From a virus, in the UHGV virus genome UHGV-0224535: a DNA stretch of 31,938 bases; one strand, written 5' to 3'. The notes under the pieces were generated by a model. That model was not told the DNA's origin. It made no database searches and worked only from the letters and a program-made list of their open reading frames with translations. The position numbers were made by a program, and so were the translations under genes. Positions within the stretch are counted from its first letter, which is position 1, and each line of letters begins with the position of its first letter. Of the stretch, positions 4,114-6,652 are shown one piece after another.

Positions 4114-4306
4114 ATGCCTTATCGCTGTGATTGTTTTGCTTTATATCGCTGGCGCGATCCTGATGTCATGTTTTATTAAGTTTAGCGGCGCTGAACCTGG
4201 TGGCCTTGAGATTCCTTTTTGGCCTGTGACTGTGTTTATCGCTTTCTTCGATGCAACGCTAGTGCAGATTAAGCGAGCCATTAAGGAGCGTAAAAATGGG
4301 AAATAG
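4106..4306 (+). CDS. small membrane protein (about 66 aa, two hydrophobic helices)
   Basis: GAGG 6 nt before ATG 4106 (three tandem ATGs at 4100-4108); MIECLIAVIVLLYIAGAILM...IPFWPVTVFIAFF... is hydrophobic; the track ORF 3986..4306 probably starts here. Confidence 0.5.
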   Translation: MIECLIAVIVLLYIAGAILMSCFIKFSGAEPGGLEIPFWPVTVFIAFFDATLVQIKRAIKERKNGK

Positions 4307-4520
4307 CGACCATCAATATGACGGCGTTTATCAGTCATTGGTGTCACGCGCTTATTATCGCCTTGAAGGTGAACACGTAATGATGCGATCACGCCAGTTT
4401 GAACTGTGGCATGAAACGGTTTTACCTGTGACAGCGAAAGAAGTTATCACGATGTTTAATCACGGACATTGGAGCAAGATTGGCGATATTAAGTTCAGGA
4501 TGTTTAAAGAGGGCGATTAA
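4296..4520 (+). CDS. small protein related to the 4521 and 4700 paralogs (74 aa)
   Basis: AGGAG RBS; ...YDGVYQS... N-terminal motif. Confidence 0.55.
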   Translation: MGNSDHQYDGVYQSLVSRAYYRLEGEHVMMRSRQFELWHETVLPVTAKEVITMFNHGHWSKIGDIKFRMFKEGD

Positions 4521-4703
4521 ATGATTGAAGATGGTATATACGCCGTGAACCTCATTGATGAAATGTTTTACCGCGTGGAGGGTAATGATATTCGTATCAG
4601 TATCGATGGTGGCGAGTGGAAAGAGCCATTCATGGATATGACGCGGGAAATAATTGAAATCATGCTTTATAACGGCGACGTGGTGAAGGTTAGCGACCTG
4701 TGA
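4521..4703 (+). CDS. small protein, paralog of the 4700 gene (60 aa)
   Basis: MIEDGIYAVNLIDEMFYRVEGNDIRISIDGGEWKE versus IEDGIYLHKVFNIVYLLKGNKVMIRPDDDPHWES in the next gene. Confidence 0.6.
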   Translation: MIEDGIYAVNLIDEMFYRVEGNDIRISIDGGEWKEPFMDMTREIIEIMLYNGDVVKVSDL

Positions 4704-4876
4704 ACGAGATCGAAGACGGCATCTATTTGCATAAGGTATTTAACATCGTCTATTTACTTAAAGGTAATAAGGTGATGATAAGACCTGATGACGATCCACA
4801 TTGGGAATCAAGCGGCATGGATCGCGAACACATGCAAACATTGCTTGATAATGGCCTGATATACAGAAAGCAGTAA
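4700..4876 (+). CDS. small protein, paralog of the 4521 gene; GTG start overlapping the upstream stop (GTGA)
   Basis: Similarity to the 4521 protein reaches the GTG codon, supporting a non-ATG start; below the track cutoff. Confidence 0.5.
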   Translation: MNEIEDGIYLHKVFNIVYLLKGNKVMIRPDDDPHWESSGMDREHMQTLLDNGLIYRKQ

Positions 4877-5126: not shown

Positions 5127-5191
5127 CGCCGTATTTGTAGAGCGCAAACAAACAGATTAAAATATTTCCTAACAATGCGAAATTGTAATTA

Positions 5192-5215
5192 CCCGGCCCC
5201 GCGCCGGGTTTTTGC
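5192..5215 (+). terminator. rho-independent terminator (CCCGGC-CCCGC-GCCGGG followed by TTTTT)
   Basis: Read directly; separates the early block from the lysis cassette. Confidence 0.6.
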
Positions 5216-5233: not shown

Positions 5234-5434
5234 ATGTTCGACAGAATACGGGAGGCGTGTGCGTATGTGACTGGGGCCGTAACTGCTTTTTTCGGCGCGA
5301 TAACCATCAATGACATCGCTGTTTTCGTTGGTATCTTATCAACCGTAGGCACATTTGCCGTTAATTATTACTTCAAATCACAGGAGAACAAGCGGGCGCA
5401 AGAGGAACACGACGCGCGAATGGGGAACAAGTAA
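5234..5434 (+). CDS. holin, probably pinholin-type (66 aa, two hydrophobic segments)
   Basis: GGAGG RBS; two TM-like stretches (ACAYVTGAVTAFFGAITI, IAVFVGILSTVGTFAVNYYF), charged C-terminus; immediately upstream of a SAR-type lysozyme. Confidence 0.75.
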   Translation: MFDRIREACAYVTGAVTAFFGAITINDIAVFVGILSTVGTFAVNYYFKSQENKRAQEEHDARMGNK

Positions 5435-5926
5435 ATGATTAGCCAATCGCTAAAGAATAAGATTATTGCTGCGGCGGCTGGTGGGGCTATCGCTATTGCG
5501 GCGGTGATGATAAAAGATCTTGAGGGTGTGGAGTACAAGCCATACAGAGATGTCATCGGTGTTTACACGATATGTTATGGACACGTCGGAAAAGACATCA
5601 TGCTGGGTAAGACTTACACGCAATCAGAATGCGATGCTTTGTTGAACAAAGATCTTCATAAAACCGCAAAAGCGATTGACCCCTACATTAAAGTCGAAAT
5701 ATCAGATTTTACCCGCGCTGCGCTTTATTCATTCGCCTATAACGTAGGCGCTACCAACTTCAAAACATCAACCTTATTGAAGCTACTCAATGACGGCAAG
5801 AAATCAGAAGCGTGCGCACAGCTTAAACGCTGGATTTATGCTGGCGGTAAGCAGTGGCAAGGGTTAATAAACCGCCGTGATGTTGAATATGCCGTTTGCG
5901 AATGGGGTGAAACATGGAAAAGGTGA
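5435..5926 (+). CDS. SAR endolysin (lysozyme with T4-lysozyme-type catalytic spacing)
   Basis: N-terminal Gly/Ala-rich weakly hydrophobic segment [18 protein letters not shown], then E-x8-D-x5-T in [17 protein letters not shown]; overall resembles phage 21-type SAR lysozymes from memory. Confidence 0.85.
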
Positions 5927-6384
5927 AGACGTTAATTATCGCCGCCATTGTTTGTATTGTTGTTGGGCTTGTTGCCGCGCTTAGTCATTGCCAGTCAGTG
6001 ATAAACACAATGCAAAGCGAGCTAACGACCACGCAAGGCGCACTAAAAACAGCGAGTAACACTATTCAGCAGATGAAGGAGCGAAACGCCGAACTGTCAA
6101 AACTTGATAAGAGGTATCACGATGAAATTAAAGCTATCAGATCTGACATTGCCGATCTGCGCACTGGTATTGATAGCGGCGCTATCCGGTTGCACGTCAA
6201 CGCCGAACCAGTGCGATTGCTCGACAATACCGGAACCGCCAGCCGCATTGATGGAGCCACCTGTAGACTCACTCCAGACGCTGAATCGGCTTATCTATCC
6301 CTCAGAGAACAATTAAAAGAAAAAGACGCGAAGATCACCGGATTGCAGGACTACATCAAAACTCAGTGCTTACGCAAAGAATAA
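5914..6384 (+). CDS. Rz: Rz-like i-spanin (N-terminal TM helix, coiled-coil periplasmic domain)
   Basis: [23 protein letters not shown] then helical charged sequence; overlaps the endolysin stop; contains the embedded Rz1 ORF. Confidence 0.75.
6122..6316 (+). CDS. Rz1: Rz1-like o-spanin lipoprotein, wholly embedded in Rz in the +1 frame
   Basis: AGAGG RBS then ATG 6122; [24 protein letters not shown] has a lipobox (LSGC); proline-rich mature part. Confidence 0.75.
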   Translation: MKLKLSDLTLPICALVLIAALSGCTSTPNQCDCSTIPEPPAALMEPPVDSLQTLNRLIYPSENN

Positions 6385-6652
6385 CAGCGCGTGGACGTGT
6401 CGCCATTTCCGCCAGCCAGCCATAACCGGGACAATCCTTCCCGCGAGCGACGGCGGAAATTCAAAAACACGTAATACCGGATCAACAGTCCCATTAACAG
6501 GTCGGGCGCTACCTGGGTAGAAGAAAGCGCCATTCACCAATTTTATAAAATTCTGGAAACGGTACTGATGAAGCGCCGTTCTCAGTGTTTTATGTCATTC
6601 CTGCCGCTGTATAAACAGGAAGTAAAAGCAAACCAGACAGGAGATTATTCTG

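Follow-up and report, generated by a model that had tools for sequence, protein, structure and literature searches.

A conserved, probably folded RNA module behind the lysis genes of coliphages resembling mEp021

Background

Structured RNAs placed between the cistrons of a long transcript, or just past the end of a coding unit, include the sib/tI element of phage lambda, the putL and putR RNAs of phage HK022, the EAR element of Bacillus, the intercistronic RNase III sites of phage T7 and the small RNAs that derive from 3' untranslated regions (3'-UTRs) or end in terminators. Here we describe a conserved module, probably a folded RNA, at positions 6385–6593 of a 31,938-nucleotide (nt) stretch of the virus genome UHGV-0224535 (this whole stretch is referred to as the window). 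It lies in a 268-bp gap (6385–6652) bounded by the stop codon of the spanin gene Rz (5914–6384) and the start of ORF185 (6653–7210), an open reading frame (ORF) of 185 amino acids (aa). An original prediction, made from the letters of the window, had singled out this gap for an inverted repeat and had suggested that it could hold a packaging site, a promoter or a small RNA.

The lambda sib/tI element is a structured RNA just past a coding unit (int), its terminator hairpin lengthens in antiterminated read-through, and it acts in cis on the upstream message; the first feature recurs at our locus, the second is predicted for it, and the third is proposed below. However, the module has no sequence or Rfam relationship to sib/tI and carries an additional conserved domain of ~150 nt, and the antiterminator, which is N in lambda, would be Q here. 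The put RNAs and EAR are conserved folded RNAs in long operons upstream of terminators, with conserved loop sequences and a flexible distance to the terminator, as in our case, and EAR is intercistronic like the module. In contrast to them, the module matches no Rfam model, occurs in phages that encode the protein antiterminator Q in every record, and has a fold different from the two-stem structure of the put RNAs. As regards terminator read-through in cis, its position inside an operon and upstream of a terminator-type hairpin is the one compatible feature.

The module also resembles 3'-UTR-derived and terminator-ended small RNAs of bacteria and prophages: it starts at a stop codon, lacks its own promoter, has a U-tailed hairpin at its 3' end and forms an autonomous unit. 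With regard to a candidate Hfq-dependent small RNA, the hairpin with its U-tail and a sharp 5' edge of conservation at the stop codon were observed. Unlike the 3'-UTR-derived small RNAs, it is constrained over ~150 nt instead of a short seed, its synthesis would be confined to late lytic growth, and no target for it was found at translation starts in the window. The T7 RNase III sites, finally, are likewise irregular intercistronic hairpins of a long phage transcript, and related phages conserve them, but the module is much larger than these, is built from several domains and carries a terminator-type hairpin with a U-tail.

Results and discussion

Covariation points to a folded plus-strand RNA

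RNAalifold analysis of 43 distinct sequences from related phages (cited below by L numbers where one has to be singled out) yielded nine helices, and a model of 61 base pairs was tested on a 50-sequence MAFFT alignment, which had not been fitted to structure and to which divergent copies had been added via their ORF185 homologs. Pairing was retained in 97.7% of cells. Both sides had changed in 12 pairs, compared to 4.0±0.9 in shuffled alignments (0 of 500 shuffles reached 12), and 36 cells carried such both-sided changes, compared to 8.5 in the shuffles; slid controls gave 0–3 compensated pairs. Reading the minus strand instead lowers the paired fraction to 91.1%, and the variable pairs include 120 G·U versus 18 A·C cells. 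This asymmetry indicates RNA rather than duplex DNA or a cruciform, and we conclude that the molecule under selection is a folded plus-strand RNA. The original prediction had named covariation analysis in related phages as a check, and the outcome argues for a conserved structure on the plus strand. Its suggestion of a small RNA is thereby supported as regards conserved RNA structure, but not as regards an independent transcript; no promoter match precedes the module.

The explanation that we favour, at a probability of about one in two, is that the module is a conserved folded plus-strand RNA with an intercistronic 3'-end and stability role in a Q-dependent late transcript. That particular function, taken on its own, is a tentative assignment and less likely than not. 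The features of the model are as follows:

6385–6593, plus strand: whole conserved module (core plus terminator-like hairpin), a single unit in all relatives examined
6385–6535, plus strand: core domain of ~150 nt
6387–6390 with 6527–6530, plus strand: H1, an alternative closing helix; changes none or one-sided only
6395–6400, plus strand: 5' arm of H2 (ACGTGT), pairing with 6467–6472; three of six pairs compensated
6467–6472, plus strand: 3' arm of H2 (ACACGT), from covariation
6406–6413 with 6452–6459, plus strand: H3, which corresponds to the repeat of the original prediction; four compensated pairs
6414–6451, plus strand: apical 38-nt segment, nearly invariant (6431 alone is commonly variable, other changes are singletons)
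6475–6531, plus strand: domain II, with H6, H7, H8 and a possible pseudoknot
6475–6478 with 6516–6519, plus strand: H6; A-U 44, G-C 4, G-U 2; one compensated pair
6479–6482 with 6488–6491, plus strand: H7; A-U 38, G-C 11, G-U 1; one compensated pair
6498–6502 with 6511–6515, plus strand: H8, essentially invariant, with a single G-U cell (L130)
6505–6510 with 6526–6531, plus strand: possible pseudoknot helix, with a single pair compensated (L130, G-C to A-U)

In the divergent L132, the arms of both H2 and H3 have been replaced and all six changed pairs still pair. Changes in H2 run from A-U to G-C (L034, L040) and from U-A to C-G and G-C to C-G (L132), with all cells paired. Three of the compensated pairs of H3 come from L132 alone (6406:6459, 6407:6458 and 6408:6457); the pair 6410:6455 is read as C-G in 28 sequences, U-G in 16, U-A in five and C-A in one. 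Two short inner helices predicted within the apical segment, H4 and H5, are invariant. In this model domain I would be a 78-nt irregular hairpin containing H3, followed by a second domain, possibly with a pseudoknot. Folding energy compared to shuffled sequences is low for domain I (z=-3.1) and unremarkable for nested folding of domain II (z~0).

The inverted repeat that had first drawn attention is exact: ATTTCCGCC (6405–6413) is perfectly complementary to GGCGGAAAT (6452–6460), and 24 of the 38 nt between the arms are G or C by direct count, in agreement with the GC-rich spacer described. The 9-bp repeat alone is marginal. When the interval is shuffled with dinucleotides preserved, 3.6% of the shuffles (181 of 5000) contain a perfect repeat of this length with a loop of 3–60 nt, as do 6.3% of real 268-nt tiles of the window (15 of 237), and the significance of the repeat derives from the comparison with relatives. 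The end pair 6405:6460 is peculiar to the window: most relatives carry G at 6460, and in 30 of 50 the two positions do not pair. The conserved helix H3 comprises 6406–6413 and 6452–6459. The remark that no T-run is present holds beside the repeat but not for the interval as a whole, as a hairpin at 6545–6593 ends in TGTTTTAT. This terminator-like hairpin had been overlooked, and the repeat is just one helix of a larger fold.

No match with E≤10 was found in Rfam 15 inside the core (6410–6535) on either strand. One match touches the module (TtnuCD34, 6337–6409, minus strand, 15.9 bits, E=8.1), lies mostly in the Rz gene and is a chance match; the variant with a 58-nt insertion (described below) and L132 likewise gave only chance matches on or overlapping the terminator-like hairpin (mir-142, 13.3 bits; mir-30, 18.4 bits). 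The paper describing genomes of this phage group does not mention the element (PMC11893012), its sequence strings do not occur in indexed papers, and a keyword search returned nothing relevant. The folded domain is thus described in no database or annotation examined, and we class the module as a new family of RNA whose general kind is known, namely intercistronic or 3'-UTR structured phage RNA with a terminator.

Sequence constraint exceeds that of neighbouring synonymous sites

Pairwise comparison of 49 distinct sequences gave a mean identity of 0.947 for the core (0.957 at paired and 0.936 at unpaired positions). Third codon positions of the adjacent genes have identities of 0.781 (endolysin), 0.745–0.769 (Rz) and 0.729 (ORF185), and the 5-nt loop of the terminator-like hairpin has 0.636. 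Put as pairwise difference, this is 22–27% at synonymous sites beside the element versus 5% inside. Constraint on the element thus matches that on first and second codon positions, and its ~70 unpaired core positions are as conserved as protein-coding ones.

These figures bear on the notion that the module has no function of its own, either reflecting recent common ancestry or serving as a homologous "linker" for mosaic recombination. All carriers belong to one phage group and the flanks are mosaic with insertions on both sides, as such a notion would predict. It does not account for the difference between adjoining synonymous sites and the module, for a hairpin loop that drifts freely, or for a count of compensated pairs above all 500 shuffles, and we consider it highly improbable.

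The gap itself contains short mechanical ORFs only (two 56-aa ORFs on the minus strand, plus ORFs of 30 and 39 aa) and lies behind lysis genes identified by Pfam, so the view that this is a non-coding gap after the lysis cassette, with no convincing ORF, is borne out. A protein-coding gene was rejected since no reading frame stays intact across relatives, which differ by 1-nt indels (two sites), an insertion of 2 nt and the block of 58 nt. The small ORFs called by depositors (phanotate calls on the plus strand and 56-aa calls on the minus strand, one of them mEp013_65) were rejected as well, as their frame and strand disagree among records and indels disrupt them; the Prokaryotic Genome Annotation Pipeline (PGAP) places no annotation over the element in E. 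coli genomes.

A sigma-70 promoter scan (-35 and -10 boxes at 16–18 nt spacing) found no site between 6000 and 7000, which removes support from the promoter that had been suggested for the gap. An invariant TATAAA at 6544–6549 has, on inspection, no acceptable -35 box, whether the 58-nt insertion is absent or present. The idea that the gap encodes a small protein, or holds a promoter that serves ORF185 and the packaging genes, could draw on the invariant TATAAA/TAAAAT in the 5' arm of the terminator-like hairpin and on Phanotate-style small ORF calls in several records. Against the lack of an acceptable -35 box or scanner match, the disagreement of annotated ORFs in frame and strand, indels in all frames and the silence of PGAP, we regard this as the most improbable of the explanations weighed here. 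Left without annotation, the element currently draws spurious small-ORF calls, and it deserves annotation even if it is an ordinary 3'-end element.

A terminator-type hairpin closes the module

The 3' part of the module is set out below together with the segments that flank it:

6536–6544, plus strand: variable linker between core and hairpin, from the alignment of relatives
6545–6593, plus strand: H9, with an A-tract, a ~20-bp stem, a free 5-nt loop (6567–6571) and a U-rich tail, TGTTTTAT (6586–6593)
6594–6638, plus strand: replaceable 3' segment, mean identity 0.756, outside the conserved module
6639–6643, plus strand: ribosome-binding site AGGAG, from direct sequence reading, upstream of the ORF185 ATG (6653–6655)

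The inverted-repeat arms of H9 (6545–6562 and 6576–6593) are such that the U-rich tail, with 6 T in 8, can pair with the preceding A-tract. Minimum free energies are -17.1 kcal/mol (z=-4.2) in the window and -21.2 kcal/mol (z=-6.5) in the common variant, of which the 33-nt inner stem-loop alone gives -11.8 and -15.9 kcal/mol, respectively. The stem of the window is weakened by an A·C mismatch at 6557:6581 (TTCTCAG where relatives read TTTTCAG). Two pairs of H9 are compensated and its lower stem is invariant. The same hairpin has been annotated as a terminator by depositors, as TERM_6 in mEp021 (MH706966.1) and as T11 by ARNold in mEp013 (PP180002.1), and a simple terminator scanner did not call it in either the window or L003. 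TERM_6 and T11 cover the hairpin alone, not the conserved domain upstream, so H9 is the only part of the module annotated previously (as a predicted terminator).

Since H9 reaches its ~20-bp stem only once the U-tail has been transcribed, with the A-tract paired to the U-tail in read-through RNA, the module might act as a retroregulator in the manner of lambda sib/tI. RNase III (or RNase E) would process this full stem or the long hairpin of domain I, and cleavage would lead to decay of the upstream lysis mRNA or separate it from the structural-gene mRNA. Its intercistronic position would suit this, as would the 78-nt irregular hairpin of domain I, which is like the T7 sites. Such a site does not usually require ~150 nt of near-invariant sequence, and the invariance of the lower stem of H9 means that covariation is lacking exactly there; we see this as an unlikely explanation.

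Module boundaries and mosaic flanks

The element starts 0–8 nt past the upstream stop codon, and does so even in relatives where a gene has been inserted between Rz and the element, as is the case for a 100-aa gene in L009, L133 and L134 and a 200-aa gene in L131. On the right, an HNH endonuclease gene separates H9 from ORF185 in L038 and L135. Gene insertions in relatives thus mark both edges of the module and never fall within the core or H9. The genes inserted on the left (L009 2413–2715; L133 and L134 2423–2725, 100 aa; L131 2129–2731, 200 aa) have no recorded family match, and the gap from Rz to the element looks like a moron-type insertion slot. Free-standing HNH genes (HNH_3, sometimes with a faint AP2 match) are found at 2413–2985 in L038, 913–1485 in L135 and 1752–2273 in L130, with further HNH genes at 256–774 and 3098–3531 in L136. 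They sit at several points between genes of the lysis-to-terminase region, and these points differ from one relative to another, which suggests active homing-type mobility in the phage group.

Within the module, variation in length is seen in the linker. About one third of relatives carry a 58-nt block beginning after about window position 6534–6536, and two have a shortened linker (L132 by 8 nt, L039 by a short deletion). The block, located at about 3636–3693 in L001 and falling between window positions 6535 and 6545, contains two small hairpins (CCTGC..GTAGG and ATCTG..CAGA), and in the first of these L026 has A-U in place of a G·U pair. The block may represent either a small insertion or an RNA domain added to the module. 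Beyond H9, the segment 6594–6638 exists in two unrelated versions, A in the window and B in most relatives. Version A has a small hairpin (TTCCTG, 6598–6603, with CAGGAA, 6616–6621) without a T-run, and version B (L003 3564–3620) has a second hairpin (CCCTGC..GCGGGG) followed by TTATATTTTT.

The module appears specific to one group of coliphages

The region is 85–89% identical to seven phage records (mEp021, mEp010, mEp013, mEp044, mEp515, mEp554 and MagusPhagus), and by this resemblance the window belongs to a temperate coliphage of the mEp021-like (mEpimmI) group. The mEpimmI phages are Nus-dependent, non-lambdoid temperate coliphages, have been proposed as a new family in 2025 and are reported to be as frequent in the human gut as lambdoid phages (PMC11893012).

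The module was present in all seven phage records, in 47 IMG/VR contigs and in 24 metagenome contigs. The 47 IMG/VR contigs are the same 47 that carry an ORF185 homolog, the two co-occurring in every one of them. Two further metagenome matches (L108 and L127) were rejected as chance matches in unrelated DNA, as the flanking sequence of the element is missing there. Among 5426 complete E. coli genomes, 35 carry the module in a prophage, in one copy each, always on the chromosome and with no annotation beneath, which brings the carriers to more than 100 related phages and prophages. A search of 72,556 plasmids gave no match, and GTDB species representatives gave no true match (one of two patterns was blank, and the other had a single match in a Syntrophobacteraceae metagenome-assembled genome, most likely due to chance). 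No second copy or partial repeat was found in the window with blastn-short or with nhmmer and the alignment profile. Protein searches with ORF185 returned homologs that all bear E. coli names or are unnamed, with no deeper relatives. Judging from these sequence matches, the module is specific to mEp021-like (mEpimmI) phages of E. coli.

Transcription context and possible function

A strong terminator, ACCCGGCCCCGCGCCGGGT followed by TTTTGCTTTG, is located at 5191–5209 just before the holin gene and has been annotated in relatives (TERM_5, T8–T10). About 30 nt upstream of it there is a promoter-like sequence, TTGTAG-17-TAAAAT (5135–5163), and we infer that 5135–5209 is laid out like a late promoter under Q control, followed by a short leader that ends at a terminator. 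Homologs of the P22-gp23-type Q antiterminator (PF03589) are encoded in 7/7 phage records, 2.0–5.7 kb upstream of holin in the six mEp ones.

In the favoured explanation, the module would be made as part of the late transcript, since it starts at whichever stop codon precedes it and lacks its own promoter. This transcript would arise from the PR'-like promoter and terminator upstream of holin and be carried onward by the P22-gp23-type Q of the group. H9 would halt RNA polymerase that lacks Q modification, and in read-through or processed RNA it would block 3' exonucleases. Two products would result, namely a lysis-gene message that is protected and a stable, structured RNA of ~200 nt. The invariant unpaired stretches of the latter may serve to bind a specific partner, be it a protein or a second RNA.

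Several observations weigh against this explanation. On the side of structure, half of the compensated pairs come from the single divergent sequence L132, helices H1, H4, H5 and H8 never covary, and the pseudoknot helix rests on one compensated pair. The folding energy of the whole module is modest (z=-1.9, and -0.9 for the core alone), and the copies all belong to a single phage group, within which divergence is limited. On the side of function, polymerase modified by Q is expected to ignore H9, making a terminated 3' end rare late in infection, and the idea of a stable RNA therefore requires processing. Three conserved segments compared to the 55 translation-start regions of the window gave duplex energies no better than those of shuffled queries. 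Lastly, the constraint at ~70 unpaired positions exceeds the need of a simple stabiliser, which favours a more specific role and keeps control of read-through in play.

Such a controller would act in cis: the folded domain would modify polymerase or recruit a factor so that it passes H9 and later terminators, on the model of the processive antiterminator RNAs put (HK022) and EAR (Bacillus), thus gating ORF185 and the packaging and morphogenesis genes, or would work as a ligand- or protein-sensing attenuator. The domain does stand directly upstream of a terminator-type hairpin in a long operon, and read-through seems obligatory as there is no promoter match between H9 and the next gene. The linker tolerates a 58-nt insertion and an 8-nt deletion, as expected for action at a distance, and the unpaired positions show near-invariance (0.936) of the sort typically seen at binding surfaces. 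However, all seven phage records encode a Q antiterminator, which renders one made of RNA redundant, no Rfam model matches, and the variable distance from core to terminator (+58 or -8 nt) is at odds with the expression platform of a classical riboswitch. An 8-nt complementarity between 6403–6410 and 6555–6562, found in most members, could serve as an alternative pairing, but it shows no covariation (observed equal to shuffled, with 395 of 500 shuffles as high), and it is broken in L132, where each of its sides covaries with its local partner instead. We therefore consider control of read-through possible but improbable. A riboswitch or attenuator with mutually exclusive pairings was rejected, as its candidate antiterminator does not covary and is lost in L132 and the spacing is variable.

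A wider possibility, to which we lend about the same low credence as to a read-through controller, is that the ~150-nt domain has a specific partner and represents a regulatory phage RNA of a new class. In one form it may act independently of Q or assist it, binding RNA polymerase or a factor or sensing a ligand or protein, and thereby gate late transcription from lysis to packaging and morphogenesis; in the other, it may be an RNA cofactor that acts in trans late in infection. The conserved unpaired positions, the possible pseudoknot and the constant site just upstream of a terminator-type hairpin make such a class compatible with the data.

If the module controls stability or read-through of the late transcript, it offers a new handle on the balance between lysis and virion genes in a temperate coliphage. 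With ~210 nt it is well delimited and ready for testing. The one long gap that this group leaves between the lysis genes and the block of ORF185 and packaging genes is occupied by an RNA as strictly conserved as protein sequence.

Gene neighbourhood and the packaging site

By Pfam, the lysis cassette upstream of the gap consists of holin (5234–5434), lysozyme (5435–5926) and Rz (5914–6384), with an Rz1-like ORF embedded in the Rz gene. The original prediction had placed the gap between lysis and packaging genes, which proved inaccurate: the next gene is ORF185, not a packaging gene, and the small terminase gene terS (8030–8515, Sf6-type) starts only at 8030, 1.4 kb downstream of the gap. It is followed by the large terminase gene terL (8512–9996), the product of which has a Terminase_6C domain and no match among PDB sequences. 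The window contains no tRNA or tmRNA.

The cos or pac site that had been proposed for the gap is disfavoured on these grounds. A DNA-level packaging site bound by terminase would be consistent with a conserved non-coding stretch upstream of packaging genes, and with the invariant blocks and the invariant inverted repeat CAGGT/ACCTG found in it. The TerS protein is Sf6 gp1-like (PF20901 at 1.1e-36; PDB 3HEF and 4DYC at about 5e-29), which we take to indicate the headful family and not the cos type, and there is no hint of cohesive ends. Known pac sites of the P22, Sf6 and SPP1 kind are located in or adjoining terS. Here the distance from the element to terS is 1.1–2.0 kb, differs among relatives and is filled with variable genes. 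Furthermore, compensatory changes with G·U intermediates on one strand indicate RNA and are not expected of a site in duplex DNA. We thus hold a packaging function of 6385–6652 to be very unlikely.

The ~800 bp between ORF185 and terS (7210–8030) contain very short ORFs only, and their length and content vary among relatives; if a pac site is defined outside terS, this interval, or else terS itself, would be a better candidate than 6385–6652. A terminator-like hairpin, TGCTGGCTTTTTATCGTCAGCA followed by TTTGCCTTTT, was matched by the scanner on the minus strand at 8053–8074, within the start of terS.

ORF185 has a HEAAH (HExxH) motif and a lysine-rich tail, lacks a Pfam match and matches phrog_1365, a group of unknown function; one source names a homolog (P0114) "PolyVal metallopeptidase superfamily domain". 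Upstream of the late promoter region, three neighbouring small ORFs at 4296–4876 (74, 60 and 58 aa) all match phrog_15318 and appear to be a tandem triplication of one gene.

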